From a virus (taxonomy: Duplodnaviria > Caudoviricetes): a stretch of 28,333 nucleotides of DNA. Below, one piece after another: positions 11,620 to 28,333 of this stretch. The notes under the pieces are model-generated. The model ran no database searches and was not told the DNA's origin. It saw only the letters and a list, made by a program, of their open reading frames with translations. The translations under genes were made by a program, and so were the position numbers. Location of the stretch: positions 1 to 28,333 of the IMG/VR virus record IMGVR_UViG_3300025435_000688; one strand, written 5' to 3'. Numbering within the stretch: the stretch's first letter is position 1; every line of letters begins with the position of its first letter.

Positions 11620-11855
11620 TGCATCCGTTTAGTCCAGATCTAAGTGGATTATCTGATCAAGAACTAGACAACAAAATTATAGATCTTGGAAAAAAATATT
11701 TCCAAGCTATACGATTTAGTCCTAGCATTTCTCATCAAATTGTGTTACTATTAGAGAGTTATAAGTCTGAGCAGCAGAATAGATTTGCTGCAAAGATGAT
11801 GAAATCTAAGATAGACGGAGATGATGAGCTAAATGAACTTATTAGGATCGATTAA
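11619..11855 (+). CDS. Small helical hypothetical protein (78 aa, MHPFSPDLS...)
   Basis: TAATG stop/start overlap at 11617-11621 favours a start at 11619 over 11562. Confidence 0.7.
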   Translation: MHPFSPDLSGLSDQELDNKIIDLGKKYFQAIRFSPSISHQIVLLLESYKSEQQNRFAAKMMKSKIDGDDELNELIRID

Positions 11856-12498
11856 AGAGTCTAATTTTCCACAAACTATAAATTTTAAGGTAAATTGTTT
11901 AGTTTACGTCGACGATGCGTTTATCGTAAACAGATTTAAGATAAAAGTTGGATTTTCTCGCACTGTTAAGAATCCAATCTTAAACGACATAGCATTAGAT
12001 CAGATGGAATTATTCTTTAGTTTGCTGATGGATAATTGTGTGATAGTCAGCAAAGATGCATATGATGCTATGGAGCATCATCCAAAAAACAACTTCTTAA
12101 TGACATACGAAAAACCGGATGATCAGGCGATAGCTTGTATGCTATTATATAAACTTGTCAGCATCGTAGGGAATAATCTAGAAATAGAATATATTTCTTT
12201 ATCTAGCATACTAGGTGACAAGATAAAGTATACAATGACAAGGAGTTCAGAAGAAGTTAAGATGGTATTGCCCAATAAAGAAAATTGGTGGAATGATAAA
12301 AACATCGACTTCAGTCCTTGGTGGTTACGTAACGATTCTGCGACTTATGATAGATTGATAAATCGAGATGAGATCTATGACGGAGAATTTACTTGGGATG
12401 ATATGTTTGAAGAGCAGATAAAGGCAGCTGCTGAATTTGATCTTCCAAAATCCACAAAAGGATTTAAGGTAATCAACGGCGGCAAAGATGCAGATTGA
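11833..12498 (+). CDS. Hypothetical protein (221 aa)
   Basis: Long ORF overlapping both neighbours in an operon; no motif recognised. Confidence 0.7.
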   Translation: MNLLGSIKESNFPQTINFKVNCLVYVDDAFIVNRFKIKVGFSRTVKNPILNDIALDQMELFFSLLMDNCVIVSKDAYDAMEHHPKNNFLMTYEKPDDQAIACMLLYKLVSIVGNNLEIEYISLSSILGDKIKYTMTRSSEEVKMVLPNKENWWNDKNIDFSPWWLRNDSATYDRLINRDEIYDGEFTWDDMFEEQIKAAAEFDLPKSTKGFKVINGGKDAD

Positions 12499-13012
12499 TC
12501 AGCTAGGAAGGATTTCTTTTTCCAGCAAGAATCTTATAGAAGAAATCTATAAAGGAAACATTGATCTCCTTCCTAATGCTTTTGTATCCACAGACGAAGA
12601 TTATGTTAAATATTTAGAATACTTAGAAGAAAAAGCTATAACTGATTGGCCTATTCCTCTGCCCGAAAACAAAGACGATATAGATATTGAGACTTTCGAT
12701 AGGTCAAATCAACATAGTTGGTTAATGCTTGCGGAATATAAGGATTTTCCAGTTGCATCCTATCTATTAAATCTATGTAAGACGGCAGAGGAAACAGCTA
12801 GAGTTAAATTAGAATTAACGCTTTTCGAAGAACATAACATGATCGCCCTTCTGTGTTATCTAAAATTTTTGGTTGACACGATGCGATCAAATAATATATT
12901 ATGGGGCGTAGGTAGAGGATCGAGCGTTGCAAGTTATTGCCTATACCTTTTAGGAATACACAAAATCGATTCGCTTAAATATAACTTAGATATAAGAGAA
13001 TTCTTAAGATAG
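12488..13012 (+). CDS. Stand-alone fragment of DNA polymerase III alpha (DnaE/PolC family)
   Basis: RVKLEL...YLKFLVDTMR...WGVGRGSSVASYCLYLLGIHKIDSLKYNLDIREFL matches the DnaE GPGRGS...YxLGITxxDP...LxFERF block; stops before the PDID motif. Confidence 0.8.
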   Translation: MQIDQLGRISFSSKNLIEEIYKGNIDLLPNAFVSTDEDYVKYLEYLEEKAITDWPIPLPENKDDIDIETFDRSNQHSWLMLAEYKDFPVASYLLNLCKTAEETARVKLELTLFEEHNMIALLCYLKFLVDTMRSNNILWGVGRGSSVASYCLYLLGIHKIDSLKYNLDIREFLR

Positions 13013-13022
13013 GAGAACGATA

Positions 13023-13412
13023 ATGGCAACACGACAAGTTTATAGATCGATGCAGGGCAAAGTAGTTGATATGGGTCAGCTAATAGCCAAGAATGAATTA
13101 ATACCAGCCGTTGGTAATTCGAAAGTTAATGCCCGAGGAGATGAGCTCGGACCTGGTGGCAAGATCGTGCGAACCAGAGAAGAAATAATGGCAGAATATT
13201 ACAGAGACACGAACAATTCCTTGCCAGATTCTGTACCAAGCAGAGCTAGGACTACTCCGGTGCCTAAGCAGCCTGATCCAGTAGCAGCGATCACAGCACC
13301 TACACATACTGCTATACTTGCAGTCAGTGACCTATCTCCGGATGAATTAGAATTCCATGATCCAGAACCATTACCTACAGAAATAACCAAGAGGAAGAGG
13401 ACCGGCGAATAA
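13023..13412 (+). CDS. Hypothetical phage protein (129 aa)
   Basis: AGGAG RBS; globular-looking N-half (AVGNSKVNARGDELGPGG) and Pro-rich tail; TAAATA at 12976-12981 upstream. Confidence 0.7.
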   Translation: MATRQVYRSMQGKVVDMGQLIAKNELIPAVGNSKVNARGDELGPGGKIVRTREEIMAEYYRDTNNSLPDSVPSRARTTPVPKQPDPVAAITAPTHTAILAVSDLSPDELEFHDPEPLPTEITKRKRTGE

Positions 13413-13777
13413 TGAGTGAAGATACACTTTTAGTAAGAGCTATACGAGATAGTATCATCGTCAGTGATATGTTCTTTGGAGATATGCGTACAACATTTGG
13501 TATCATTATTCCAAACGACGATGGCAAGAGCTACGGAATCAAACCTCGCTGGGGCAAGGTATATTCCGTCGGTCCTGAACAAAAAGATGTAGTTATCGGA
13601 GATTGGGTATTAATAGAACATGGACGTTGGACTAGGGGGTTTGATTTCGATCTAGATGATGGATCAAAAATTACCTTGCGAAGGATAGATGCAGATGCTA
13701 TACTCTTAATTAGTGATGAAAGACCTTCTGATGTGCAGGTCACGCCAGACAGAATCTTAGATTTACACACTAATTAA
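13412..13777 (+). CDS. groES: GroES/Cpn10-like co-chaperonin
   Basis: RAIRDSIIV...TTFGIIIP (mobile loop)...GKVYSVGP...VVIGDWVLI...IDADAIL. Confidence 0.75.
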   Translation: MSEDTLLVRAIRDSIIVSDMFFGDMRTTFGIIIPNDDGKSYGIKPRWGKVYSVGPEQKDVVIGDWVLIEHGRWTRGFDFDLDDGSKITLRRIDADAILLISDERPSDVQVTPDRILDLHTN

Positions 13778-13788
13778 AAGGAAATTTT

Positions 13789-14214
13789 ATGTCAAATCAA
13801 ATTGACCTACAGAAATATTCGTCATTCGTCGAATATGTGACTAGCGATACAAGCAAGTATGCATATGCGTTCCAAGAAAGGTTTGACAAACTCTGTCAAA
13901 CACAAGACGACGGGACTAATATCAATCCAACATTGTTGATCACTGCAGGTATCGGTCTTAGTAGCGAAACTGGAGAGTTCAACGAAATTATAAAAAAGAT
14001 GCTGTTCCAGGGCAAGCCGCTCAACGAAGAGAATCGTTTCCATATGATGCGCGAACTAGGTGATATCATTTGGTATTGGACGAATGCTTGCCGCGCACTT
14101 GGGTATGATCCTAATGAAGTTATCGCTGAAAATGTACGCAAGTTAGAAACACGCTACCCCGGTGGCAAGTTTGATGCGTGGTATAGTGAAAATCGAATAG
14201 ATGGCGATCTCTAA
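13789..14214 (+). CDS. mazG: MazG-like nucleoside triphosphate pyrophosphohydrolase
   Basis: GLSSETGEFNEIIKK...RELGDIIWY...NVRKLETRYP. Confidence 0.88.
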   Translation: MSNQIDLQKYSSFVEYVTSDTSKYAYAFQERFDKLCQTQDDGTNINPTLLITAGIGLSSETGEFNEIIKKMLFQGKPLNEENRFHMMRELGDIIWYWTNACRALGYDPNEVIAENVRKLETRYPGGKFDAWYSENRIDGDL

Positions 14215-15663
14215 GTGTCAACATATGACAGCACGAAAGAGCTATTAGAAAAAATTAGTCCTACAATGTGTGCTGCAAAGTGGAATCAACCCACTTTGCA
14301 TCTACATAATGGACAAACACATAGCTGTCATCATCCAAATACACATCCTATACATTTAGGAGAAATAAAAGACGATCCCGCAGCATTAGTTAATAGCGGA
14401 TATCTAAAAACACAACGCAGAGAGATGGTCGAAGGTAAAAGGCCACAAGAATGCAATTACTGCTGGAACATAGAAAACACCAACGGAATTAGTGATAGAG
14501 TATTAAAAAGCAAATACGATACTCCTCTAGACAAATTAAATGAACTAGTTAACACAGATCCAGAACAATTATATACAAAGAATTTTAATCCTACTTACAT
14601 AGAAATTAGTTTCGATTATACTTGTAATTTAAAATGTGCATATTGCGGACCCACTATAAGCAGTGCTTGGCATCAAGAGATATTAGAACACGGTGGCTAC
14701 CCTACAACTATTCCTCACTATGATCTAGAATCTTACAAATCAAAACTTCCAATACTCAAGAGAGATCATAACCCTTATGTGGATGCTTTTTGGAAATGGT
14801 TTCCAGAATTAAAAAATGATCTCAAGATACTTAGAGTAACAGGCGGCGAACCTCTGTTAAGCAAAGATATGTGGAAACTGTTTGATAACCTAATAGAAGG
14901 ATCAAACACAGATATGACTTTTGCTGTTAATACTAATCTAATGCAAGATCGAGATATCATAGATAAACTAATCAATAGGATCAATAAATTAGAAGGTAAA
15001 GTAAGAAACTTTGAATTGTATACTTCTATAGATACAGGTATAGCCAAACACGCAGAATATATTAGATACGGACTGGATTATAATATCTTTCAATCAAATC
15101 TAGAGAGAGTACTAGATGAAGTTAAATGGCCCATAAAAGTTTCCAATATGTGTACTGTAACTAATCTAAGTTCTGTTGGGTTAAAAGACATCATAAGATA
15201 TTTTTTCCTGCTGAGGGGCGAATATGCTGGAACACACAAAGTAGCTAATCACAATTCATATCTACGATATCCTAATTGGTTAGATCTGCGAGTAGGTAGA
15301 GATACATCTATACATTATCTAGAAAAAACTAAAAAATACTACGAAAAGATAATGATAGAAAACAAAGCTAGAGACATAAAAAGTCTCAAGATAGACTTCT
15401 TAAACGGAAAGAGTGTGACGTTCCCAGGAAATGAAGATTATGACTTGTCTAATATTTTCCCCTATTGGAGCAAAAACGATATGTCTAAGCAGATTGATAG
15501 ACTGATAGGATTTGCTAAGATTCCGTTACCCGAATCGCAAGAAACTGTTATGCATCGAGATTTTTATAAATTCTGGACAGAATACGATCGACGCAAAGGA
15601 ACGGACTTCTGTAAAACTTTTCCGGAGTTTGCAGACTTTTATCATAAATGCAAGCAATTATAG
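14215..15663 (+). CDS. Radical SAM protein with N-terminal Twitch/SPASM-like Cys cluster
   Basis: CNLKCAYC (CxxxCxxC), TGGEPLL, NTNL, SID; N-terminal CAAKW...SCHH...ECNYCW; GTG start. Confidence 0.85.
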   Translation: MSTYDSTKELLEKISPTMCAAKWNQPTLHLHNGQTHSCHHPNTHPIHLGEIKDDPAALVNSGYLKTQRREMVEGKRPQECNYCWNIENTNGISDRVLKSKYDTPLDKLNELVNTDPEQLYTKNFNPTYIEISFDYTCNLKCAYCGPTISSAWHQEILEHGGYPTTIPHYDLESYKSKLPILKRDHNPYVDAFWKWFPELKNDLKILRVTGGEPLLSKDMWKLFDNLIEGSNTDMTFAVNTNLMQDRDIIDKLINRINKLEGKVRNFELYTSIDTGIAKHAEYIRYGLDYNIFQSNLERVLDEVKWPIKVSNMCTVTNLSSVGLKDIIRYFFLLRGEYAGTHKVANHNSYLRYPNWLDLRVGRDTSIHYLEKTKKYYEKIMIENKARDIKSLKIDFLNGKSVTFPGNEDYDLSNIFPYWSKNDMSKQIDRLIGFAKIPLPESQETVMHRDFYKFWTEYDRRKGTDFCKTFPEFADFYHKCKQL

Positions 15664-15692
15664 TTGACCACTAGATCTAATTATGCTATTAT
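15664..15692 (+). promoter_or_regulatory. Sigma70-type promoter TTGACC-N17-TATTAT with extended TG
   Basis: TTGACC 15664-69, TG 15684-85, TATTAT 15687-92; AGGAG 15704-08 follows. Confidence 0.7.
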
Positions 15693-15713
15693 AAGAATTA
15701 TTTAGGAGCATCT

Positions 15714-15872
15714 ATGAAATTTAGCAATGCTAGTTCTGGCGTAGGAACTATGGGGTTAGCTGGTATATCTCTTATGATATTACATATCACAAATCAATTA
15801 ACCGGATGGGCTTGGCCTTTATTGTATGTGCTAATGATAATGATGGCGATAGGACAGGAAAATCGAAAATGA
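15714..15872 (+). CDS. 52-aa two-helix membrane protein (not in ORF track)
   Basis: MKFSNASSGVGTMGLAGISLMILHITNQLTGWAWPLLYVLMIMMAIGQENRK*; AGGAG RBS; ATGA overlap with the next gene. Confidence 0.75.
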   Translation: MKFSNASSGVGTMGLAGISLMILHITNQLTGWAWPLLYVLMIMMAIGQENRK

Positions 15873-16225
15873 GTGGACCTTACGTAACAGGAGCAGAAGC
15901 GCCTGGTATATATTATAATAAGAAGGAACCTAAGAAATTGAACTTTTTACAGCGTTGGTTTGATCAAAAGTGTAGAGAGGCTTGGAATCGTGCTCAGTGC
16001 GAGCCTGCTAGTCCTTCTAGACTTATACCAATGGAAGATCCTGGAATTAATTCGATTGATGGATTGCAAATACGACTCTACGGAGCTACAGGTGGTCATA
16101 TTGTAGAATTCCGAAAATATGATAGACATAAAGACCGCACTGATTGTAGAATGTATGTTATTCATTCTGAAAAGAACTTTAGTGAAGAACTAGCTAAAGT
16201 CGTGAGTTTGGAGATATTAAGATGA
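15869..16225 (+). CDS. Hypothetical protein (118 aa, MSGPYVTG...)
   Basis: ATGA coupling at 15869-15872 favours this start over 15806. Confidence 0.65.
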   Translation: MSGPYVTGAEAPGIYYNKKEPKKLNFLQRWFDQKCREAWNRAQCEPASPSRLIPMEDPGINSIDGLQIRLYGATGGHIVEFRKYDRHKDRTDCRMYVIHSEKNFSEELAKVVSLEILR

Positions 16226-16446
16226 CGACTGATATTGAAATAGAAGATGTCTATACAAAAATGCAGAATTTTTCTATAGAATTAGCACTAGATTCGTCTA
16301 TAATAGCTGTTGCAGGCGTGATGATGGCACAGGCATTAACTATCTATAAAACTATATTATCGCCCGAAGAATACGAAATGATGTGCGCAAGCATTTACGA
16401 ATCTCGTGGCAAAGTAAAGAAGCTAACAGGACCAACACTACAATGA
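16222..16446 (+). CDS. Small hypothetical protein (74 aa)
   Basis: GGAG RBS; ATGA overlaps at both ends. Confidence 0.7.
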   Translation: MTTDIEIEDVYTKMQNFSIELALDSSIIAVAGVMMAQALTIYKTILSPEEYEMMCASIYESRGKVKKLTGPTLQ

Positions 16447-17366
16447 AACAACTATGGGTAGAAAAGTATCGGCCAAACACTGTTGCTGACTATGTTTTTA
16501 GAGATGAGAATCAAAAGGCACAGGTTGAGCAATGGATCAAGGATAAGTCTATTCCGCATTTATTGTTAAGCGGTAGCCCGGGTATTGGTAAGACTACTCT
16601 CGCTAAGATGCTGCTGAATGAGATGGGCATCAATGATTTTGATGTGTTAACAGCTAACGGATCTAAAGAAGGTCGTAAGATCGAATGGGTAGACAAGCTG
16701 ATTAGTTTCTGTCAGATAATCCCGTTTGGACCTTTTAAGGTTGTGCTTATCGATGAAGCTGATTATCTTAATCCTAATTCTACACAACCGGCGTTGCGTA
16801 ATCTAATGGAAGATTATAGTCATAGTGTTCGTTTTATTATGACCTGCAACTATCCCAACAAGATCATTCCTGCGCTACACAGTAGATGCCAAGGTTTCCA
16901 TATAGAGACCGTGGATAGAGATGAATTTACAGCCCGCGTAGCAACTATCTTGCTTAAAGAGCTCATCGATATCGATATCGATACGCTAGATACCTATGTC
17001 AAGGCTACATACCCAGATATGCGCAAGTGCATCAATCTAGTGCAGATGAATAGCGGAACTGGAGTTCTAGTGTCTCCAGATAAGGATGATAAATCTCAAT
17101 CAGATTGGCGGCTTTCTATGGTACAGTTATTCAAGCAGGGCAAGATAAGCGAAGCTAGGAAACTTGTTTGTAAAAATGCGCGGCCAGAAGAAATGGAAGA
17201 AATCTATCGATGGTTATATGATAACCTAGAGCTGATCAGCAAGGATGAAGCTGTACAAGATAAAATCGTCCTCGTGATCAAACAAGGTTTGGTAGATCAT
17301 GTCAGCGTAGCCGATGCTGAAATTAATCTAGCGGCTACGCTGATACGAATAGCTAATCTAGTCTAG
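16443..17366 (+). CDS. Clamp loader AAA+ small subunit (RFC/T4 gp44-like)
   Basis: WVEKYRP, Walker A GSPGIGKT, Walker B DEAD, SRC motif; start at the ATGA overlap 16443. Confidence 0.92.
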   Translation: MKQLWVEKYRPNTVADYVFRDENQKAQVEQWIKDKSIPHLLLSGSPGIGKTTLAKMLLNEMGINDFDVLTANGSKEGRKIEWVDKLISFCQIIPFGPFKVVLIDEADYLNPNSTQPALRNLMEDYSHSVRFIMTCNYPNKIIPALHSRCQGFHIETVDRDEFTARVATILLKELIDIDIDTLDTYVKATYPDMRKCINLVQMNSGTGVLVSPDKDDKSQSDWRLSMVQLFKQGKISEARKLVCKNARPEEMEEIYRWLYDNLELISKDEAVQDKIVLVIKQGLVDHVSVADAEINLAATLIRIANLV

Positions 17367-18088
17367 TCTCCGTATATTTCCAATATCTCTTTGACTGCAG
17401 GATGCCTTTCGATATCCTTTTGTCCAAAGTTGACTATGTCAACGTGCTTGAGATTTCCGTTGGTATTTTTAAGACGATTGATAAATTCTATTAATCCGTT
17501 GTCTTCTAGACGATCGGCTTGTCTTAGATCTCCAGTTATAACCATGCGGCTGTTATCTCCTATTCTTGTCAGCAGCATTTTCATTTGGTTTGGTGTAGCA
17601 TTTTGCATTTCATCTGCTAATATAAAAGCATTCTTGAACGTTCTCCCCCTCATATAAGCTAATGGACTTACTTCTATTATGCCTTCTAATAGCATATTTT
17701 GTATTTCCTTAGCAAAATAATATTCAGCAAACACATCAAATATTGGACGTGTCCATGGTTCCATCTTTTTTTCTAAAGTGCCAGGTAAAAATCCGTGTTG
17801 TTCATCAACACTCACTGCTGGCCTAGTGATAATGATTTTTTCTATCTCTCCTTCTTTCAATAATTTGATAGCTATTTGCGTGGCCAGTAGAGTTTTACCT
17901 GTACCTGCTGGTCCAACTGCAAATATCATAGTTTTTGTGGAATCTTGTAGTTTGAGAAAATAAGACTCTTGTGATCTGTTCCTTGGTATTATTTTTACCT
18001 GAGTCTTCTTTTTAGGCTGATATTCTTGGAAATTTATTACATTATCGTTAAAACGTTGTTGCTTTTTAGCTGATCGTTGTCTAGACAA
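17363..18088 (-). CDS. phoH: PhoH-like ATPase
   Basis: GPAGTGKT, TRPAV, GFLPG, YMRGRT, DEMQN, GDLRQAD, ERH; TTG start 8 nt after AAGGAG. Confidence 0.95.
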   Translation of the reverse strand: MSRQRSAKKQQRFNDNVINFQEYQPKKKTQVKIIPRNRSQESYFLKLQDSTKTMIFAVGPAGTGKTLLATQIAIKLLKEGEIEKIIITRPAVSVDEQHGFLPGTLEKKMEPWTRPIFDVFAEYYFAKEIQNMLLEGIIEVSPLAYMRGRTFKNAFILADEMQNATPNQMKMLLTRIGDNSRMVITGDLRQADRLEDNGLIEFINRLKNTNGNLKHVDIVNFGQKDIERHPAVKEILEIYGD

Positions 18089-18110
18089 ATGCTATGCTCC
18101 TTCTTTGCTG

Positions 18111-18160
18111 GAAGGACACTGTCCAAAAACGAGGACCATTGTCCTTCATAATTATTTAAG
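18111..18160 (-). promoter_or_regulatory. phoH leader: late-type CTTAAATA followed by a 5' stem-loop
   Basis: Minus-strand TAAATA at 18158-18153; inverted repeat GAAGGACA (18111-18)/TGTCCTTC (18140-47) with inner GTCC/GGAC. Confidence 0.55.
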
Positions 18161-18202
18161 GCCAAATGCAAAATCATAACTGGTTATAATGTGTTTTTAG
18201 TC

Positions 18203-18210
18203 GATAAATA
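18203..18210 (+). promoter_or_regulatory. Late promoter-like GATAAATA
   Basis: Intergenic, 21 nt before ATG 18232. Confidence 0.6.
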
Positions 18211-18231
18211 CTTTCATAAGAGAGATATCAA

Positions 18232-18804
18232 ATGCGTGACGAAGTTGACATAATCAAGAACATTTCTACCATATATGATAGCAACAATAGCCTCAGAATC
18301 CTAAAAGATTTTGAAAGGGTTATTGATACGTTAGACATATACGTATTTAAAAACTGGGAAGATGGAGAATTAGTTGAAGGTCCATTTGTCAGTCGCCATT
18401 GGGTAGAATGCAAGTTCTTATGGCACAAGGAAAAGATGCCAGACCCCATGGGGGGCAAACGCCTGCTGGATTATGGTTGCAAAGTTGGATATAAAAAAGA
18501 TGTCCTAAAGAAACCACGCAAGATTAAAGAACCGAGTGATTTTCGACCAAACAGCAAAAAAGGCAAAATGGAAGAATTACCAGTATGGATCGTTACGGTA
18601 AAGATGCCTAAGAAATTGATATTTGATATTTTCAAGGGCACAGTGAGGAACGCTAAAGATAATCAAATTGATCTAGAATCAATCTATCAGTACACTGACA
18701 CTGAAGCCAATACTCCATCTACTATGGAAGCGGATTCAAATGCAGCGCAGCAGGAAACACCTGCAGCACCAACTGTAGGAGGCGCTAATGCCCCAGCTGC
18801 ATGA
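18232..18804 (+). CDS. Hypothetical phage protein (190 aa), probably late
   Basis: Clean ORF after TAAATA; low-complexity Ala/Pro tail; no recognised family. Confidence 0.75.
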   Translation: MRDEVDIIKNISTIYDSNNSLRILKDFERVIDTLDIYVFKNWEDGELVEGPFVSRHWVECKFLWHKEKMPDPMGGKRLLDYGCKVGYKKDVLKKPRKIKEPSDFRPNSKKGKMEELPVWIVTVKMPKKLIFDIFKGTVRNAKDNQIDLESIYQYTDTEANTPSTMEADSNAAQQETPAAPTVGGANAPAA

Positions 18805-19519
18805 AGACCTTAGGAGCGGCGATCTAGAAGATCTCGTCAAGCCAGTAATACACATCGATACCTATAAAGCGACTATGGGCAAAGATGAGGATGTTGCTAC
18901 CGTAAGTTTTGAAGTCATAGGCAAAGATGCTGCTAATGATCTAGTGAATTTTATAGAGAATGGTTATGATTTTATCATGGACGCTAAAGCTAGCGAAGGT
19001 GAAGGTAAAAATCATACGTTCACTGTATTCATAGAAATAGAAAGAGGCAGGAAACTGGCTAATCATATAGAAGATATGATCTACGGTGTGGGAGAATTAG
19101 CTAAGATAACCGATTGGCGTTTCCGTTATTATAAAGACCTACAGAGCAAACCTATAGAAGATATAAAACATCTAGTTCCTACTGATCCGGCAAAATATAA
19201 ATCAAAGATAGAAAAAATATTTGAAGATGATATGAATTTTTTCTTCCGCAAGAGTCCTCTAGATTATATCGATATAGAAGAGAACAAACTTACATTCAAG
19301 AGATTCTCTAACAGCCCTGTAAAAATGGAATTAATGGATTATGGCACACGCACAGATATACTGGGCAACTTAGATGCTGTCATAAGGATAGACGAGAATA
19401 GTACTAGCCAATCTCTTTGGTTAACAAAGTATTTTGGAGATTACAATATCACCAAATACGACGAATATTTTGTTTTTGAAGACGGAAACAATGTACTAAT
19501 GCTTAAACTCATTTCTTGA
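18788..19519 (+). CDS. Hypothetical acidic phage protein (243 aa)
   Basis: GGAGG RBS; overlaps the previous gene; begins MPQLHE. Confidence 0.75.
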   Translation: MPQLHEDLRSGDLEDLVKPVIHIDTYKATMGKDEDVATVSFEVIGKDAANDLVNFIENGYDFIMDAKASEGEGKNHTFTVFIEIERGRKLANHIEDMIYGVGELAKITDWRFRYYKDLQSKPIEDIKHLVPTDPAKYKSKIEKIFEDDMNFFFRKSPLDYIDIEENKLTFKRFSNSPVKMELMDYGTRTDILGNLDAVIRIDENSTSQSLWLTKYFGDYNITKYDEYFVFEDGNNVLMLKLIS

Positions 19520-19546
19520 CTTTTCGTCTAAAATAATTTATAAGTA
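19516..19546 (+). promoter_or_regulatory. Possible promoter TTGACT-N17-TATAAG / late-like TATAAGTA
   Basis: TTGACT 19516-21; TATAAG(TA) 19539-46 just before dnaJ. Confidence 0.4.
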
Positions 19547-19551
19547 AAAGC

Positions 19552-20427
19552 ATGGACCACTATTCAACACTCGGCGTAGATAAGACTGCATCAGCAGATG
19601 ATATACAGAAAGCCTTTCGCAAGGCAGCAATGAAGCATCATCCCGATCGAGGGGGCGATGCAGCTAAATTCCAAGAACTTAACGAAGCATATAGCACACT
19701 AAGCGATCCGCAGAAGCGTGCAGAATATGATATGGGTGGACAGAATCCGTTTGGGCAACAGGGTCATCCTTTTGCTAATGGTTTCCATTTTACTACCGGA
19801 AATCCTTTCCAGGGAGGCGGTTTTGCTGGAAATCCTTTCCAGGATGTATTCAATCAATTTGGTTTCCAATTCCATCAAGGACAGCAACAGGTAAGAAATA
19901 GAGATCTAAACATACGCTGCAAGATAGGACTAAAGGATGTTTATCTAGGCAAACAGATGAACGTATCTTATAGGATGCCAAGCGGACGAGAAGAATCAGT
20001 AACCATAGACGTTCCGCCGGGTATAGAGCACGGACAGATATTAAAGCTATCCGGATATGGCGATGATTCTATGAAGCAATTCCCTAGAGGCGATCTAACC
20101 ATATCGATAGAAGTTGAAGGTATGCCAAACTTCCATAGAGAAGATATCAATGTAGTCACTAGCATAGATCTAGATATCTTTGATGCTATGCTAGGAACTA
20201 CTGTAACCGTAAAACACATAGATGGAACAGATGTCGACCTAGCTGTTCCTGCAGGATCTCTACATGGCCAGAGATTGAGCTGCAAGGGCCTAGGATTTAA
20301 ACATATGAAGTTTACTAACGTGCGAGGAGATCTACACGTGATACTGAACATAAAAACTCCTAGAGTTACAGATCCTAAACTAATCGAAGAAATTAAATCT
20401 CTAGCTGCTAAACTCAAAAGAAAATAA
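19552..20427 (+). CDS. dnaJ: DnaJ-class (type II, CbpA-like) co-chaperone
   Basis: J domain with HPD, G/F linker, C-terminal substrate-binding domains, no Zn finger. Confidence 0.92.
   Translation: MDHYSTLGVDKTASADDIQKAFRKAAMKHHPDRGGDAAKFQELNEAYSTLSDPQKRAEYDMGGQNPFGQQGHPFANGFHFTTGNPFQGGGFAGNPFQDVFNQFGFQFHQGQQQVRNRDLNIRCKIGLKDVYLGKQMNVSYRMPSGREESVTIDVPPGIEHGQILKLSGYGDDSMKQFPRGDLTISIEVEGMPNFHREDINVVTSIDLDIFDAMLGTTVTVKHIDGTDVDLAVPAGSLHGQRLSCKGLGFKHMKFTNVRGDLHVILNIKTPRVTDPKLIEEIKSLAAKLKRK
19798..19843 (+). repeat. 16-bp exact direct repeat in the DnaJ G/F linker
   Basis: GGAAATCCTTTCCAGG at 19798-19813 and 19828-19843 (GNPFQ twice). Confidence 0.85.
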
Positions 20428-20436
20428 ATTATACTC

Positions 20437-20465
20437 TTGATCTTTATCTATTATCATAGTATAAT
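20437..20465 (+). promoter_or_regulatory. Sigma70-type promoter TTGATC-N17-TATAAT
   Basis: TTGATC 20437-42, TATAAT 20460-65, GGAG 20477-80. Confidence 0.7.
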
Positions 20466-20489
20466 GTTATACTATTGGAGAAAAAAAGT

Positions 20490-22697
20490 ATGATGTTAGA
20501 ACCCAGTGAGAGCTTGCAGACTGTATTCGAGCAAGCAATTTCTATTGCTGAAGATTTAAACCACGAGTACGTAACACTAGAACATATAACTTTAGCGATA
20601 TTCACTGATGAAAAGTTTTCAGAATTCCTAGAAGAATATGACGGATCTCCGGATCTAGTACGTACTAATGTTGATTTCTATATCAAAAATAACTTAACTG
20701 ATATAGTATCTGATGAAGAAACAAAACCTCAAAAAACACAAACTGTAGAAAGATGTTTCAACAGAGCATTTACCCAGGCATTATTTAATGGTCGCCAAAA
20801 GATAGAGACTACTGATCTATTGCTGAGTATCTTGTCTGAAAAAAAGACACACGCAGTCTATATCCTGAACAAAGCAGGATTTACCAAGGATAAATTTAGT
20901 GAATATATCGATACAGAAACGATAAACGTGGACGAAGAAACATTTAATAGTAGCCAGTTTGATAAACTGTTATCACAATATACTACCAATCTAAATCATC
21001 AAGCACAGAAGAATAAGATCGATCCTGTAATTGGAAGAGATTCTGAGATCGAAAGCATGGTGCTTGCACTGGGTCGTCGTAATAAAGCAAACATAATCAT
21101 GGTAGGAGATCCCGGTGTTGGTAAGACTGCTATCGCGGAAGGTCTAGCTTATAAAATCGTCAATAACGAAGTTCCGGATTTCCTAAAGGATCACACGCTT
21201 TATAATCTAGATATAGGTGCTCTATTAGCAGGTTCTAAATATCGCGGCGAATTTGAAGAGCGGCTAAAGGCTGTGCTAAAGGCTGTAGAAAAGAAGGGCA
21301 AAAGCATCGTGTTTATCGACGAAGCCCATATGATGAACGGTGCGGGTGCAGGGAACAATAGTCCAAACGACATGGCTAATATGCTAAAGCCTGCGCTCAG
21401 CAAAGGCACTATCAAAGTCATCGCTTCAACTACTTGGGAAGAATATCGCAAGCACTTTGAAAAGGATCGTGCGCTAATGCGTCGATTCCAGCGTGTGACC
21501 GTTGACGAACCTACGACAGAAGTCACTATGGATATCTTACGCGGTATCAAGAAGTATTACGAAGACTTCCATAAAGCCGTGATCAATGACGATGCGATCG
21601 ATGCTGCTGTTAAGTTAAGTGTGAAATATCAAAGCGATAAGAAACTCCCAGATAAGGCTATCGATCTAATCGATCTTGCCTGTGCTAGATTTAAGCTCGA
21701 TACAAATGCTGCACGAGTAGTTGGGAAAAGCAACATAGAATTTGAACTTGGTAAAATGATCAAGATGCCTGTCGAGAGTATAAGCGAAACTGAAAGCAAT
21801 GTATTGCATCAATTAGAAGGCAATATGAAATCAAATGTGTTTGGACAAGATTCTGCTATCGATAATATTCTCGATAAGATCTTTATCGCACACGCAGGAT
21901 TGAAAAGTCCTAACAAGCCCGTGGGCAGTTTCTTATTTGTTGGTCCTACAGGTTGTGGTAAAACTGAAACGGCTAAGCAGCTAGCAGAAAATCTCTCAAT
22001 CAAGTTGATAAGATTTGATATGAGCGAGTATCAGGAAAAACACAGTGTTGCTAAGTTCATCGGAGCACCTCCCGGATATGTAGGCTTCGATGATAATGCC
22101 GGACAGCTTATCACTAAGATACAGGAAAATCCAAACTGTGTGCTATTGCTCGACGAGATTGAAAAAGCGCATCCAGACGTTAGCAATGTTTTATTGCAGC
22201 TCATGGATAACGGGCAGGTTACAGGATCTAATGGTAAGGTAGCCGATTGTCGCAATATTATCTTGATCCTAACATCTAATCTAGGTGCTAAGGATGCAGA
22301 ACGCCCAATTATTGGTTTTGGTCAAGAGGATAGATATAACGACGGCGATGATGCAGTTAAGGAGTTCTTTGCTCCGGAATTCCGCAACAGATTAGATGCT
22401 GTGGTTAGATTTAATAGACTATCCAAAACTAATATGGAAATGATTGTGATTAAGTTTGTCGCAGAGCTACAGGGGTTGATAAAGGATAAAACCGTTAATA
22501 TAACAGTAAGTCCTTTGGCTATGGATCTATTGATTACACAGGGATTTGATCCTAAGATGGGCGCACGTCCTTTGAGTCGCATAATTGATAATAAGATCAA
22601 AAAGCCTTTGAGCCGAGAGATGCTGTTTGGTAGACTCAAAAATGGCGGCAACGTAGTAGTTGACGTGCAAGATAGAGATGTTATACTTACAATATGA
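20490..22697 (+). CDS. clpA: ATP-dependent Clp protease ATPase subunit, ClpA-type
   Basis: Clp N-domain; two AAA+ modules (GDPGVGKT/IDEAH; GPTGCGKT/LDEIEKAH); GYVG pore loop; IGF ClpP-docking loop; no ClpB coiled-coil middle domain. Start ATG 20490 lies 9 nt after GGAG. Confidence 0.92.
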   Translation: MMLEPSESLQTVFEQAISIAEDLNHEYVTLEHITLAIFTDEKFSEFLEEYDGSPDLVRTNVDFYIKNNLTDIVSDEETKPQKTQTVERCFNRAFTQALFNGRQKIETTDLLLSILSEKKTHAVYILNKAGFTKDKFSEYIDTETINVDEETFNSSQFDKLLSQYTTNLNHQAQKNKIDPVIGRDSEIESMVLALGRRNKANIIMVGDPGVGKTAIAEGLAYKIVNNEVPDFLKDHTLYNLDIGALLAGSKYRGEFEERLKAVLKAVEKKGKSIVFIDEAHMMNGAGAGNNSPNDMANMLKPALSKGTIKVIASTTWEEYRKHFEKDRALMRRFQRVTVDEPTTEVTMDILRGIKKYYEDFHKAVINDDAIDAAVKLSVKYQSDKKLPDKAIDLIDLACARFKLDTNAARVVGKSNIEFELGKMIKMPVESISETESNVLHQLEGNMKSNVFGQDSAIDNILDKIFIAHAGLKSPNKPVGSFLFVGPTGCGKTETAKQLAENLSIKLIRFDMSEYQEKHSVAKFIGAPPGYVGFDDNAGQLITKIQENPNCVLLLDEIEKAHPDVSNVLLQLMDNGQVTGSNGKVADCRNIILILTSNLGAKDAERPIIGFGQEDRYNDGDDAVKEFFAPEFRNRLDAVVRFNRLSKTNMEMIVIKFVAELQGLIKDKTVNITVSPLAMDLLITQGFDPKMGARPLSRIIDNKIKKPLSREMLFGRLKNGGNVVVDVQDRDVILTI

Positions 22698-23680: not shown

Positions 23681-24037
23681 ATGCCAGCAAGCAGCCAAAT
23701 AATATTACCTAGCACAACACACGATCCTTTAAATCTACTTCCAGTAACAGTGACCAGCGATCCTTTCAAGGGCGCTGGTTATTACGGATTTGGATATGGA
23801 TTACATACTGTAAGTTATCAAGGAACTGGGTTCGAAGGTGTTATCAGTATGCAGGCAACACTAGCTGCAACTCCTGCCGAAGAGGACTGGTTTACAGTTC
23901 CAGAAACTACACAAGATAATACAGACTCTCCTTATACAGGAGTGAGCATATATAATTTTACAGGAAATTTTGTTTGGGTTAGAGCTACTGTAACTTATAC
24001 GATCGGAACTATCAATAATATAACATATAACTATTGA
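23681..24037 (+). CDS. Small beta-rich late protein, possibly a virion component
   Basis: Thr/Gly/Tyr-rich composition like the structural genes; TAAATA upstream. Confidence 0.65.
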   Translation: MPASSQIILPSTTHDPLNLLPVTVTSDPFKGAGYYGFGYGLHTVSYQGTGFEGVISMQATLAATPAEEDWFTVPETTQDNTDSPYTGVSIYNFTGNFVWVRATVTYTIGTINNITYNY

Positions 24038-24062
24038 CACATTTAATTTTCAATGTTATAAT
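24034..24062 (+). promoter_or_regulatory. Perfect-consensus sigma70 promoter TTGACA-N17-TATAAT with extended TG
   Basis: TTGACA 24034-39, TG 24054-55, TATAAT 24057-62. Confidence 0.9.
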
Positions 24063-24084: not shown

Positions 24085-24300
24085 ATGAAGAATGTCAAGG
24101 GCGCAAATAAGACCAAGTGTACGCTGATCCACCCAGAAACTGGACAAAAAGTTTCAGCTGATATCCTAAGCAAAGATAAAATGCGTATGACTGTACGTCC
24201 GCAAGGTACTAGGATCGAAATCAACATGGTACGTGCTGACGAGACTATTCCATACCGTGGAGCCTTCAACGGACAATACTTCACTGCTCACATAGATTGA
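24085..24300 (+). CDS. 71-aa early hypothetical protein
   Basis: GGAG at 24074-77, directly behind the consensus promoter. Confidence 0.75.
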   Translation: MKNVKGANKTKCTLIHPETGQKVSADILSKDKMRMTVRPQGTRIEINMVRADETIPYRGAFNGQYFTAHID

Positions 24301-24323
24301 TAAATATCCTAAAGAGGATATTT
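24299..24323 (+). promoter_or_regulatory. Late promoter GATAAATA overlapping an RBS-sequestering hairpin
   Basis: AAATATCCT-AAAG-AGGATATTT perfect 9-bp stem (24302-24323) covering the GAGGA RBS. Confidence 0.75.
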
Positions 24324-24325
24324 TT

Positions 24326-24928
24326 ATGGCCGAAATACGAGATCTAATTAAAAGGCTGGATCATATAGAAAATCTCAAAGAAGATGTTACTGGTGATGCA
24401 GCAGAAGTTGGTGCTAAGGCGATCGGCAAACACTTACCAGGTGTAGGTTTAGTATTTGGCGGAGCTGATGCTGCTTATAGGGTATATAATGGTGATTATC
24501 TCGGAGCCGGTATATCTTTACTTTCAGGTATCGTATCATTAGAACCAGGGCCAGGTACTGCTGCGAGCATAGCATTAGATGCAGCGAACATTGCTAGAGA
24601 TCATTTAGCAGTCGCGGATAAGACACCAAATATAGTTGCAGATCCGGAAGCAGCCAAAGAAGTTGCTTCTGCACCAACTCCACCATCGGATAAAGATATA
24701 GCTACAATAGTTGGAGATAATTTGTCACCAGAAGCTATTTCAAAATTAGCTGCGGCTGCAGAACAATACGCTTTACCAGCGGCTGCTATAGTAGCATTAT
24801 TATATGGGGGTAAGGTACTATATGATTATTTAACGGCAAAAACTAAGGAAAAAATTTCACCTAAAACTTCTATAAGAGAAATGATGGAGATAGTTAGAGC
24901 AGAACAGATAATAAGAGAGATGCTGTAA
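24326..24928 (+). CDS. Gly/Ala-rich hydrophobic-helix protein, putative internal virion/ejection protein
   Basis: Leader ending NLKE; hydrophobic segments LPGVGLVFGG, YLGAGISLLSGIVSL, ALPAAAIVALLYGG. Confidence 0.55.
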   Translation: MAEIRDLIKRLDHIENLKEDVTGDAAEVGAKAIGKHLPGVGLVFGGADAAYRVYNGDYLGAGISLLSGIVSLEPGPGTAASIALDAANIARDHLAVADKTPNIVADPEAAKEVASAPTPPSDKDIATIVGDNLSPEAISKLAAAAEQYALPAAAIVALLYGGKVLYDYLTAKTKEKISPKTSIREMMEIVRAEQIIREML

Positions 24929-26073
24929 TGTTATTAAATGAACTGTTTAGCAATCTCAAAGAAGCAGCTCCTGCAGTAGGTAGGAAATATCAACATATAG
25001 AAGATCTAGTGTTTACAAATGGATCAAATGGCGGATTACACGCTGTCGAACGTTTAAAACATATGGGAACGAAGGGCGGTAACATAGAACTAAAATGGGA
25101 TGGAAGTCCTGTCGTCTATTGGGGAAGAGATGATCAAGGCCGCTTTAGCCTCATACCTAAAAATGCTTGGGAGTATCTAAAGCGTGGTAAGACACAGCTA
25201 GATAACGGTGCTCCGACGGTTATGTACAAACCACAAGATATAAGTGATTTCATCTTAAATACCGGCAAAGCAGAACCCGATAAAGAAAAGGCTAGAAAAG
25301 CCTATGCTCAACAGCTATCTGGACTTTGGAAATATTTTGAAAAAGTTAGTCCAGAAAGAGGTTACCTAGAAGGAGGATTGCTTTTCTATCCTGGAGCGGA
25401 ACCTCAATATAACGCAAATACAGGTGAATACGAATTCCAACCAAATCTAACTACGTTCCACATACCGGGCAATAGCGCTCTTGGAATGCGTATTAAAAAT
25501 GCTGCTGTAATGGTAGCAGCTACCGGATACTATCCTACATTAGGTAGTAGCGAAGAAAGCCGTTATCCTGATGCAGAAAAACTTTCTACACCAGATGTTA
25601 TAGTACAAGGCACTACTTACGTTGAACAGGCGCCAGGTGCAGACGAAACAGGATTAAATGCTGCGGCTAAATTTATCTCATCCAATGCACAAGCCATAGA
25701 TAATTTCTTAGCACCGAAGCCGGGATTAAGCAAACCTGGTGATATATTATATAAGTTCTTCAATCAAAATTTACGCATAGCAGGTGTGAAGAAAAAATTC
25801 CAAGAATGGGCTATGCAAAATCTATCAGCAGGACAAGCAGGTAAAGTCGTTAATGATCCAGGATTAGATGTCGTATTAACTGCCGTAGAAATGCTCACAA
25901 AAGAAAAAATGAAACTGATAGATTCATTAAGTAAAGGTACACACGGTGATATAAGGCAAACTAAACCCGAAGGATATGTCCAGGCACACCCCGGTGGTAA
26001 GTTTGCTAACGATATTCCGGGACAGTTTGTAAAGACCATAGATCAAAAAAATTGGTCTCCGAGGAAAGATTAA
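24928..26073 (+). CDS. Ligase/capping-enzyme superfamily nucleotidyltransferase (RNA-ligase-like; DUF6267-like)
   Basis: Motif I ELKWDGS (Lys56), motif III YLEGGLL, motif IV PEGYV, motif V FVKTI; no OB domain. Confidence 0.7.
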   Translation: MLLNELFSNLKEAAPAVGRKYQHIEDLVFTNGSNGGLHAVERLKHMGTKGGNIELKWDGSPVVYWGRDDQGRFSLIPKNAWEYLKRGKTQLDNGAPTVMYKPQDISDFILNTGKAEPDKEKARKAYAQQLSGLWKYFEKVSPERGYLEGGLLFYPGAEPQYNANTGEYEFQPNLTTFHIPGNSALGMRIKNAAVMVAATGYYPTLGSSEESRYPDAEKLSTPDVIVQGTTYVEQAPGADETGLNAAAKFISSNAQAIDNFLAPKPGLSKPGDILYKFFNQNLRIAGVKKKFQEWAMQNLSAGQAGKVVNDPGLDVVLTAVEMLTKEKMKLIDSLSKGTHGDIRQTKPEGYVQAHPGGKFANDIPGQFVKTIDQKNWSPRKD

Positions 26074-28333
26074 TGTTTTTACGTGAGCTATTAAACGAAA
26101 CCCTAACTAGGACAGGACACGGAAGCACTGCCGTTGTTGGTTGGGGGCGCGGTATGGGACATAAAGGTCATATGTATCTAGCTAGCGCAGTCATACACAA
26201 GGCACAGGAAGTAGGCGGAGATCCCTACTTCGTGGTGAGCAGGACTGTAGGAAAAGATGATCCTATCAATCCGGAAGAGAAGATGGCTATCTATAAGAAG
26301 GTATTTCCAGACAGCAGCCATATATTCCAAACTGCTACAGATGAGATGCCGGACCTAACTCGTGTGCTATCAAATTTAAATCAACAAGGCTATACTAATG
26401 CTATCGTAGTAGTCGGTGCTGATCAAGTTAAGGCTCTCGCATATGTTAAGAACTACAACAACACACCTGACAAGACAGGCAAGATACACTACAAGTTTGA
26501 TAATCTAGAAGTTATCAGCAGGCAAGAAACTAGCGCTCCGGATGCGCAAGAAGAAGGCCCACGTGCTACTCCTATGCGCCAAATACTATTAGATCCAAAT
26601 GCTAGCGAAGAACAAAAATTTGCAGTTTGGCGCGATGCTATGAATCCCGAGATAGACGATGCTCAAGTTATGGATCTAATGCGTAAAGCGGAACAGCGTA
26701 TGAAAGCTATGCCTTCTAAGAAAGTTAAAGAAGGATTGCCTAATAGTAATCCGGAAGATAACCTACAGGCAAGCCAAATAAAAGATATGCTAAACAGAGG
26801 TATGGCTAAGTTAAATCCTCGTGAACAATTTGTGGTTTACAATGTAGCAATTAAAGGTCAGTCTTTTGCTAAGGTTGCTTTGGCTATAGGAAAATCAAAG
26901 CAGATGGCTAGTAATATTTACTATACTGCTATTGATAAACTCCGGAATGATAGATACAAAAATCAAGTGAGACCTACTGAGCTAATGAAGAATGTGGATA
27001 AAACTGATCTAGATTTATTAGAAGGCGTCTTTATGCAAAAGATGAAGAATAACTTCGGTATGGATCAATCTGCTTATGATACTAAGAATCCAGGTACCAG
27101 TCCTGATTACGTAGATAGCAACATCACAGTACAGCTTCTCAAGAATATCGATCGACATGGTGGATATCCAATACAGTTTAAAAACGGAACAGAACTACAC
27201 GTTAGTAGCTCATTATCACAAAAAATATTATTTAAGATACAGGACCTACTACCTAAAGAACGCCACGCTGTTATAAATCATATAATACAGTCTAGTGATA
27301 ACTTTAAAAGTTTTGCACAAGGTCTATCAGAAGCCATGATGCCAAAAAAAAACTTCGCGGGCTCAAGTAAGAACAAGCTAGGTCCTGCAGGTCATCTAAA
27401 AGGTAAAATGAAACGAGCTGCTAAAGCAGGCGATCTTGTTGGTGCTATGGAAGCATTTGATAGTGGTAGTCCGGTAGGTGGCAAACGTGGTAGTGGAGAA
27501 CCACATGCAGGATACGATATGGACGCTATGCGTAAAGCTACTGGCACTATGGAAGATACCGACGATTTTGAAGTACACGGGTACCATCATCTAGACGAGC
27601 TGTTAGCAGAACTCTGCAGGCTGGTAGTAGAAGGTCAAAAGCAAGACCCAGATCGTAACGGTATGGTAGCTGCTGGTATTAAAACTAAATTATATCCGTT
27701 TATGGCTCGTGTAGGATATATGGGCAAGCATGGCCACGTACACGCAGAACGTGCTGTATTAGAAGCATTCACTAGCAAACACGGCGAAGTTCCTGAAGGC
27801 AGCATAATGTTAGTCACACTAAGCCCTTGCAACAGACACGATGATAAAACTGCAAGTGAGCGTGTTGGTGAACCCTGTAGCGAATTAGTAGCAGCGCACG
27901 GTATCGAAAAAGTCTATTGCGGATTAATCGATCCAAGCCAAGCACACGGCGGACACGATCATAGGCATTATACACTAATAGAAACAGAAAATTCTAAGAT
28001 AAGAGATCTCTGCGAACAGTTTGCAAATACTTTTTTGCACGGAAAAGAAAGGCTATATGAATCAACTAGTTTCACAGGAGCATTAAGGAACCAACTAAAC
28101 AGATGGATGGACAAGGACCAAAAATTTAAAGATCCTTCCCAAAGGATACAGTTCCAAGAAGAGATTTGGCCACAGATAGAAAAATATCTAGTTTACATCC
28201 TAGAAGATAGAGGCCCAAAGGGCGACGGCGATTATCCTAGCAGTCCATTTGCTGCTTGGTTACTTGTACAGCATATGGATGCGTTTCCTAATAGGCAACG
28301 TGAGTTTTTAAATGCCTTGGAACAGTATATACC
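26073..28333 (+). CDS. Multidomain polyprotein, 3'-truncated (>753 aa): HxGH nucleotidyltransferase + sigma70 region-4 HTH + unknown modules + Zn deaminase + DUF6624-like
   Basis: Manual translation from the TAATG overlap is stop-free to the window end. WGRGMGHKGH and VVVGADQ; KLNPREQFVV...QSFAKVALAIGKSKQMASNIYYTAIDKLR; HAE...TLSPC-x15-C; AAWLLVQHMD. Confidence 0.85.
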   Translation, partial: MFLRELLNETLTRTGHGSTAVVGWGRGMGHKGHMYLASAVIHKAQEVGGDPYFVVSRTVGKDDPINPEEKMAIYKKVFPDSSHIFQTATDEMPDLTRVLSNLNQQGYTNAIVVVGADQVKALAYVKNYNNTPDKTGKIHYKFDNLEVISRQETSAPDAQEEGPRATPMRQILLDPNASEEQKFAVWRDAMNPEIDDAQVMDLMRKAEQRMKAMPSKKVKEGLPNSNPEDNLQASQIKDMLNRGMAKLNPREQFVVYNVAIKGQSFAKVALAIGKSKQMASNIYYTAIDKLRNDRYKNQVRPTELMKNVDKTDLDLLEGVFMQKMKNNFGMDQSAYDTKNPGTSPDYVDSNITVQLLKNIDRHGGYPIQFKNGTELHVSSSLSQKILFKIQDLLPKERHAVINHIIQSSDNFKSFAQGLSEAMMPKKNFAGSSKNKLGPAGHLKGKMKRAAKAGDLVGAMEAFDSGSPVGGKRGSGEPHAGYDMDAMRKATGTMEDTDDFEVHGYHHLDELLAELCRLVVEGQKQDPDRNGMVAAGIKTKLYPFMARVGYMGKHGHVHAERAVLEAFTSKHGEVPEGSIMLVTLSPCNRHDDKTASERVGEPCSELVAAHGIEKVYCGLIDPSQAHGGHDHRHYTLIETENSKIRDLCEQFANTFLHGKERLYESTSFTGALRNQLNRWMDKDQKFKDPSQRIQFQEEIWPQIEKYLVYILEDRGPKGDGDYPSSPFAAWLLVQHMDAFPNRQREFLNALEQYI

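Follow-up and report, generated by a model that had tools for sequence, protein, structure and literature searches.

A phage gene built of interchangeable modules joined at hydrophobic-x-Glu motifs, a candidate precursor for a prohead protease

Results

A long open reading frame made of unrelated modules

The subject of this study is a gene at the end of virus record IMGVR_UViG_3300025435_000688 of IMG/VR, which is 28,333 nt long, was analysed at its full length (hereafter, the window) and is identical to all of G000. The gene is an open reading frame (ORF) that starts with an ATG at position 26073 on the + strand and is still open at the contig end after 753 amino acids (aa). A first-pass annotation, made from the sequence alone, had proposed that this ORF encodes a polyprotein of unrelated modules whose ends are marked by Glu tripeptides of the kind cut by phage prohead proteases. 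The ORF is real, and so are its seven Glu junctions, for which the proposed coordinates coincide with the last base of the Glu codon; by residue, the sites are LNE9, VKE220, LLE317, LSE420, AME460, TME494 and LYE663. The extension beyond the contig that the same annotation had envisaged was found in L001, which matches the window ORF over 2261 nt with 0 mismatches; in it, the ORF reaches at least 1203 aa without a stop codon and has four more joints (850, 964, ~1100 and 1189). Of 24 rows for sequencing runs that contain the stretch, 22 are freshwater metagenomes, and no RNA run was among those listed.

The ORF begins with a 9-aa leader ending in L-N-E (26073..26099, + strand), which resembles the capsid-targeting propeptide of T4 and in which residues 1-8 are modelled with a predicted local distance difference test (pLDDT) value below 50. 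An [ILVMF]-x-E motif occurs within the first 12 residues of 63 of 78 distinct homolog N-termini, as compared with 71 of 382 genes of the related genome G001. The leader is followed by the constant N-terminal module, a HIGH-superfamily nucleotidyltransferase of 211 aa that ends in V-K-E (26100..26732, +) and carries the HxGH motif as HKGH. It matched PHROG 3041 (E 4.6e-23) and, only at E 0.018, PF01467, with no NCBIfam match; it also matched viral cytidyltransferase-like models (E about 1e-8 to 1e-10), and the best solved-structure match was a weak one to the NaMN adenylyltransferase 8aii (E 6.5e-3). The module is up to about 34% identical to the 'cytidyltransferases' of T4-like cyanophages (343 phage records), and the part of the chain after it found no match among 50,697 annotated phage records. 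In 101 homolog pairs, the homology of the relatives ends at residues 217-220, where this module ends.

The second module is a sigma-70 region-4 helix-turn-helix of 97 aa ending in L-L-E (26733..27023, +; TIGR02937 E 2.2e-8; PF04545 E 0.0021, below cut-off). Only the C-terminal, region-4 part was matched, and a full sigma-70 factor with regions 2 and 4 was rejected for this reason. The third module (103 aa, ending in L-S-E; 27024..27332, +) is of unknown function and had no Pfam or NCBIfam match. It is missing from P0004, P0005 and P0013. In the Atlas, its best score was 0.84, to unnamed viral clusters, and matches below 0.9 serve only as leads; a search of viral contigs added 16 weak 21-residue matches, which were left unused. 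Two short pieces follow. The first is a basic peptide of 40 aa (isoelectric point (pI) 10.5) that ends in A-M-E (27333..27452, +) and recurs at other positions in many homologs; 17 alignment ends fall on its last residue, 460. The second is a 34-aa peptide ending in T-M-E (27453..27554, +), which has a different next module in P0008 and P0013.

Next comes a zinc-dependent deaminase of the cytidine deaminase (CDA) fold (169 aa, ending in L-Y-E; 27555..28061, +) with HAE and PC...C motifs. It matched PF00383 above cut-off (E 4.3e-6), and Foldseek matched it to RibD, TadA and dCMP deaminases. Its match to TIGR00326 (E 1.3e-10) covers positions 35-137 of 343 with 41 bits against a cut-off of 156, and bifunctional RibD was rejected because no reductase domain follows the deaminase. 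Where this module occurs in other proteins, [ILVMF]-x-E is found at 30 of 37 N-terminal edges and 61 of 80 C-terminal edges. The window ends within an all-helical module, of which it holds the first 90 of 187 aa (28062..28333, +) before the ORF leaves the contig. The first-pass annotation had called this module DUF6624-like, a label that we rejected, as PF20329 matched neither any of 19 alignment members nor any of three records at E<=1, with a control that matched in 3 of 14 genomes. The model of the module is confident (pLDDT 92.5), and the fold search returned generic helical repeats (best Z 8.3; root-mean-square deviation 2.6 over 85 residues) and one environmental phage homolog, from which no function follows; the Atlas gave no usable match. 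Viral-contig searches with the deaminase and the helical module found the three nearest records only.

In L001, the helical module ends in V-N-E850 and is followed by a ParB/Srx-like module (PF02195, E 1.9e-6) up to I-D-E964, a DUF6934-like module up to about E1100 (E 0.001, below cut-off), an unknown module of 89 aa that ends at T-D-E1189, and, at the C-terminus, a short peptide. The search of the chain turned up no peptidase module, and scans of 27 and 13 proteins or segments gave no match to the hub domains MPTase, ArdC-N or MuF, for which Pfam has families. The labels nucleotidyltransferase, sigma-4 and deaminase were matched by the family searches, and the modules are unrelated to each other, as had been claimed. 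As far as the sequences tell, the chain is a series of about a dozen swappable, unrelated modules joined at hydrophobic-x-Glu.

Several relatives (P0086, P0135, P0144, P0242, L062 and L078) carry HD (HD_4), NT5C, GNAT and amidoligase-like modules in similar chains, which also hold DUF5661, DUF5872, DUF6321 and DUF6934. A module of ~200 aa in P0008, P0009 and P0012-P0015 carries H-G-S close to its N-terminal end and, towards its end, a Y-x-N...E pattern; we presume it to be ADP-ribosyltransferase-like, and it had no Pfam match in P0008 or P0009. In loci L002-L056, most chains terminate with a short conserved peptide, of which there are a few kinds, and no site comes after it. By analogy with the C-terminal propeptide of T4 Alt, these peptides could be a second tether.

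Modules are gained, lost and reordered at the joints

Module swaps at x-x-E in homologs had been predicted, and at all six internal sites of the window modules are indeed lost, gained or reordered. P0003 differs by the precise absence of the sigma-4 module and P0004 by that of the 103-aa module, and P0005 lacks both; P0006 lacks four modules, up to E460, and in P0008 and P0012 the sigma-4 module has moved to the C-terminus. The modules shared by the relatives are mostly 77-100% identical. A jumping-alignment script, too noisy for distant homologs, was applied to the closest ones only. The first-pass annotation had doubted TME494 as a poor fit to known consensuses. That doubt can be dropped, given that TME494 is a swap point in P0008 and P0013 and that Thr occupies P3, with the Glu as P1, in 9 of 104 anchored joints.

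At the DNA level, L002 lacks an exact block of 291 nt (the sigma-4 module), and the crossover falls inside a 6-nt overlap that surrounds the Glu codon. L002 shares this joint, with the sigma-4 module missing, with a contig of run X17, which is from another study; in that comparison, four joints marked 'between: not known' were left out. The alignments to relatives show in-frame gain, loss and reordering of modules at the joints. The joints are, by their DNA sequence, also crossover points, which the first-pass annotation had not noticed.

The motif is enriched at swap points

The 1203-aa chain contains 30 [ILVMFT]-x-E tripeptides, 11 of which are the leader end and joints. Since such a motif alone is common, the case for more than chance rests on homologs. 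We assembled a blind set of 176 distinct proteins (119 of the best 120 of 504 protein matches, and the ORFs of the best 80 of 90 loci), in which swap points were called as alignment jumps between diagonals without use of the motif. The set yielded 114 junction types, counts that are not phylogenetically independent and carry no phylogeny correction. Within the strict co-optimal switch window, Glu was present at 34 of 114 types versus 14.4 expected. Because the calls fell ~3 residues before the motif, the window was widened post hoc, after the strict test, to -2..+5; Glu then lay within it at 104 of 114 types versus 50.4 expected, with ten types lacking a nearby Glu. [ILVMF]-x-E was found at 75 of 114 types versus 20.5 expected, a number reached in 0 of 200,000 simulations, and the P1 controls D, K, Q, A, G and S showed no enrichment at the same 114 types. 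The P3 residues of the 104 anchored joints are led by Val (V49, L11, T9, K9, I7, M6, S4, A3). When the junctions were collapsed to distinct module ends or starts, the motif remained at 17 of 30 (5.4 expected) and 27 of 43 (7.6 expected), respectively.

A second set came from a search of residues 221-1203 against 1.84 billion representatives, which gave 804 matches, and 147 of the best 150 were used, the remaining three being already in the first set. The matches begin and end at module edges, which were taken from the query and are hence not blind. [ILVMF]-x-E lies within 4 residues of 159 of 204 edges versus 34 expected, and the controls D (32 versus 36 expected) and K (28 versus 39 expected) do not rise above expectation. 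The same modules often start right behind leaders of 9-13 aa that end in the motif. By these sequence counts, the enrichment of the motif at swap points far exceeds chance.

One possible explanation for such a distribution is that leader-bearing neighbour genes were fused by loss of stop codons, and that the internal motifs are unused remnants of their leaders. The same modules do occur alone behind motif-ending leaders, and neighbouring genes overlap in their stop and start codons. However, no Met-initiated leader pattern was found at the window's joints, and the site stays attached to the end of the upstream module, irrespective of what comes next. The motif is kept after 112 of 125 internal modules in relatives only 35-60% identical, as compared with 4 of 22 terminal ones (the background for an 18-residue window being 27%, and the terminal figure being lowered because terminal tails are short). 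We consider vestigial fusion very improbable.

A recurrent DNA word in sister clades

Many joints of sister clades have the sequence (Q)GVAE, encoded by a fixed set of codons that are otherwise rarer. The 14-nt word that reads G-V-A-E is present in about 2000 stored stretches of viral contigs. In 25 of the 136 loci retrieved (L107-L242) it occurs in multiple copies, often 2-3 within 1 kb, with 34 of 35 spacings in frame, and in 153 of 171 matches that frame is the longest open one. A synonymous control word, found in about 1600 stretches, gave 0 of 120 multi-copy loci and lay mostly in unrelated genes in the 30 contexts printed. Between neighbouring in-frame copies, the codons were GTG/GTA in 28 of 30 and GCG/GCA in 29 of 30 cases, with differences that were mostly transitions. 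We read the sister-clade G-V-A-E sequence as a linker that was probably spread by short-homology recombination.

These observations raise the question of whether the chain is an uncut polyvalent protein, in which the Glu motif is only a copied DNA crossover word. The in-frame clustering of the word at joints, which the synonymous control does not show, and the 6-nt overlap of the L002 deletion would be accounted for in this way, and proteins such as the N4 vRNAP and those of the ArdC type are delivered uncut (PMC5512222). Neither the window nor G001 contains the word, however, so that it is not the general mechanism. The eleven joints of the window share little beyond the Glu codon, and their hydrophobic P3 residues are specified by different codons. 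Given the missing word and the varied joint codons, the signal shared within the window is one at the protein level. Moreover, the enrichment survives the removal of VAE-type joints (51 of 88 versus 15.7 expected), and the same motif ends leaders, where a crossover is not needed. We, therefore, think that an uncut chain is unlikely.

The joints lie at or near the edges of predicted domains

We modelled residues 1-970 with AlphaFold2 (48 alignment rows; predicted template modelling score 0.39). Confident domains extend over about 9-218, 503-655 and 666-843, and the sigma-4 domain is weak; pLDDT is below 50 at 1-8, 219-233, 294-379 (with short breaks), 410-502, 656-665, 844-893 and 932-970. All modelled joints fall within stretches of low confidence or at their borders; of the unused motifs, most are in helices or strands of confident domains. 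The expectation that the Glu sites lie in disordered linkers is borne out insofar as the confident domains stop at joints; it is doubtful for E317 and E420, which are in low-confidence predicted helices with few aligned rows.

The 40-aa and 34-aa pieces have no predicted fold, and several pieces of the chain are only peptides of 30-40 aa. One could envision, then, a chain that is packaged and cut but serves mostly as head filler, with short basic peptides that take part in core assembly or DNA neutralisation and are then expelled or inert, and with only a few folded modules acting in the host. Many family members carry mainly short Lys-rich modules, like the piece of pI 10.5 here, and in T4 gp21 degrades gp22, gp67 and gp68 to peptides that leave the head (PMC9958956). 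On the other hand, the larger modules are intact enzyme folds (the deaminase and ParB/Srx modules here; HD, NT5C and GNAT in relatives), and several modules exist stand-alone at the same extent. Taken together, a role mainly as filler seems to us rather improbable.

Relatives encode a gp21-type protease

If the joints are cut in the prohead, a suitable protease should be encoded by the phage, as the first-pass annotation had pointed out. Neither the window nor any of its three nearest records includes the head genes (0 of 3), all being fragments, so that the protease is known only from relatives. G001, a genome of 345 kb that is 94% complete, is syntenic with the window, and the shared genes are 31-71% identical. 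Both G001 and G002 encode a Peptidase_S77 (gp21-type) protein next to gp23, and the match is above cut-off in two of five related records. The G001 protease aligns to T4 gp21 (5jbl, E 1e-14) and has His, Ser and Asp at what we take to be the catalytic-triad positions. In the G001 capsid protein, L-M-E40 immediately precedes the region that corresponds to mature T4 gp23 in the alignment.

As a side observation, 19 of the 382 called genes of G001 start with M-x-hydrophobic-x-E/D-hydrophobic, and they cluster near the head genes and the nucleotidyltransferase. They make up a list of candidate head-cargo genes. A late-promoter-like word is directly before 7 of 17 leader-bearing G001 genes, versus 79 of 365 other genes, a difference that is weak alone.

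Genomic context of the gene

The polyprotein gene is the last of a run of three genes whose ends overlap or adjoin, and all three have a leader ending in hydrophobic-x-Glu. The first is an ORF of 200 aa (24326..24928, +) with a leader ending in LKE19, and is likely a co-transcribed head-cargo gene; over residues 23-93, its product shares 59% identity with part of a leader-bearing G001 protein of 682 aa. The second is an ORF of 381 aa (24928..26073, +; DUF6267, PF19782, E 1e-16) with a leader ending in LKE12, whose stop codon overlaps the polyprotein start at 26073. In G001, the DUF6267 module lies behind an extra N-terminal module, with an I-N-E joint where the window leader ends. The DUF6267 protein (24928-26073), which adjoins the nucleotidyltransferase, has a K-W-D-G motif near its N-terminus that presumably resembles motif I of ATP-dependent ligases. 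DUF6267 and the nucleotidyltransferase apparently form one frame in 16 of 80 loci (a long open frame upstream), and S-PM2 has a similar neighbour beside its nucleotidyltransferase gene.

T4 late promoters are linked to an ATAAATA-type word. ATAAATA is found at 24300..24306 (+), 26 nt before the first gene of the run. The window has six copies versus 15.7 expected, all on the + strand, and five of the six sit 24-36 nt upstream of a start codon; those other than the copy before the run precede tail, baseplate-like and 'virion structural' genes. Given this promoter word, the three-gene run may be expressed late. A perfect sigma-70 promoter (12/12, extended -10) is present at 24034-24062, among late genes, and behind it, just upstream of the run, is an ORF of 71 aa of unknown function (24085-24300).

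Elsewhere in the window, sequence reading suggests a sedolisin/subtilase-type serine protease for a 407-aa ORF between tail genes (5631-6854), and small ORFs at 11562-13012, the last of which resembles an N-terminal part of DNA polymerase III alpha and has a 41% identical counterpart in G001. The block at 13412-22697 reads as GroES-like, MazG-like, radical-SAM-like, clamp-loader-like, PhoH, DnaJ and Clp ATPase genes, of which PhoH is on the opposite strand; most of these chaperone and housekeeping genes are syntenic in G001.

Discussion

The T4 internal-protein system provides a model for the gene described here. T4 gp21 cuts after L/I-X-E and removes targeting leaders of 10 aa (PMC9026906); it is active inside the completed prohead, where it trims the IPs and Alt (PMC9958956), and Alt is cut at ITE-6 and LTE-619 (PMC5694885). 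IPI, IPII, IPIII and Alt have in common with the window's chain a short leader ending in hydrophobic-x-Glu, a putative late context and variable cargo (PMC9026906, PMC9958956, PMC5694885), and the syntenic relatives of the window have the gp21-family protease beside gp22/gp23. T4 cargo differs in that each gene gives one mature protein with terminal propeptides only (at both ends in Alt), whereas the chain has ten internal motif joints between unrelated modules, which are the points of reshuffling. P3 is led by Val in the window's family, but is L/I in T4 and S/A in phiKZ, for which the consensus is S/A-X-E (PMC9026906). The window's chain would work like the T4 internal-protein system but is not a homolog of the IPs or Alt. 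The head proteases phiKZ gp175 and SPN3US gp245 likewise cleave many head proteins after the Glu of a three-residue motif (PMC10052503, PMC9026906); there, the motif is A/S-X-E, and the mapped cuts remove or fragment propeptides. SPN3US is a phiKZ-type phage, whereas the relatives of the window phage have a T4-type head cluster.

The make-up of the chain recalls polyvalent proteins, which also combine unrelated domains, GNAT and ParB among them, in shifting architectures (Iyer et al. 2017, PMC5512222). Those authors drew the analogy with viral polyproteins and proposed that embedded metallopeptidases release the domains, whereas no peptidase or hub domain was found in the window's chain. The part of their paper drawn on here describes no recurring junction motif, targeting leader or role for the prohead protease. 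The novel side of the chain is that it joins processing of the T4 internal-protein type, as we propose it, with a polyvalent-protein make-up; no description of polyproteins jointed by prohead-protease sites was found in searches of an open-access library.

Cultured cyanophages have related proteins. In CsCl-purified S-CREM2 virions, the cytidylyltransferase gp154 was detected together with gp155, gp156 and gp160 (PMC10665884). The cyanophage cytidyltransferase genes (PHROG 395/3041; S-PM2 p142 and S-CREM2 gp154) encode an enzyme homologous to that of the window, and it is this enzyme that is reported in virions. In S-CREM2 (L388, OR473000), the motif closes the leaders of gp154 and gp156. Its gp160 consists of a string of short pieces bounded by the motif, one of which shares 77% identity with a P0152 module, and gp156 matches modules of four related proteins at about 35% identity. 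Small proteins near the cytidyltransferase share modules and motif-bounded joints with the window's family. In these two loci, however, the cytidyltransferase does not head a long module chain, and no processing is reported in the parts of the sources used here. We also noted that S-PM2 (L387) p145-p146 contain short motif-bounded modules in common with the window's chain family.

We propose that the ORF probably encodes a precursor that is targeted to the capsid, packaged there and divided by the prohead protease into individual cargo proteins. A late operon would express the chain of about a dozen swappable modules. Crossovers would use the few bases around the Glu codon, as shown for one deletion by its 6-nt overlap, so that a shuffled gene would keep a site at every new joint. 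The short leader would draw the chain into the prohead, as suggested by T4 capsid targeting and by the related modules in cyanophage virions, and the gp21-type protease of the phage would cut the joints, as suggested by the motif itself, by its position between folded domains and by the presence of the protease gene in relatives. The freed enzymes and peptides might then enter the next host separately, where the nucleotidyltransferase, the deaminase and the ParB/Srx module may handle nucleotides or NAD and the sigma-4 piece may steer transcription; these last steps are the weakest inferences that we make.

An alternative is that the chain is never packaged and that the head protease, or a different one, cuts it in the cytoplasm during late infection. 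The window has Clp ATPase, DnaJ and GroES-like genes, by sequence reading, which would suit such a scheme, and the S-CREM2 virion proteins were possibly co-purified, as the authors of that study allow (PMC10665884). Against this stand the leader, which resembles a packaging signal, and the behaviour of gp21, which turns active inside the completed prohead (PMC9958956). Cytoplasmic cutting is, in our estimation, highly unlikely.

Several points weigh against a packaged and cut precursor, the possible co-purification of the S-CREM2 proteins being one. In SPN3US, A-X-E cuts remove terminal propeptides, and about 80% of the head proteins are uncut (PMC10052503). The joints fixed at the DNA level in sister clades mean that the motif can spread without selection at the protein level. 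Within the chain, 19 further [ILVMFT]-x-E tripeptides lie inside modules, three of them (at residues 91, 575 and 600) in loops of domains modelled with confidence; the P3 residue of AME460 is Ala; and E317 and E420 fall in predicted helices. The junction counts come from related sequences. The nucleotidyltransferase of the relatives that have the protease is 67-70% identical to that of the window, and the sigma-70 promoter, 290 nt upstream of the run, makes early read-through possible. Finally, the window phage is uncultured, and its packaging, cleavage and ejection steps are putative.

In a broader context, T4-related environmental phages have many head proteins that are long and variable and lack annotation. 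We regard it as an evenly balanced possibility that T4-related aquatic phages have a true polyprotein strategy, in which one leader loads a host-takeover kit, the maturation protease frees its members and each joint is both a recombination and a cleavage site. If this is true, it would be a cassette array at the protein level, extending from freshwater giants to cultured cyanophages, and would explain how cargo can be swapped without a new packaging signal for each piece. The role of gp21 would then extend from trimming propeptides to making many products per precursor. If the joints are cut, the motif would be a rule for splitting head proteins into mature products and would yield a catalogue of candidate injected enzymes and peptides. 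Among cultured phages, S-CREM2 and S-PM2 have shared modules in gp160 and p145, respectively, in which the key step would be directly testable.

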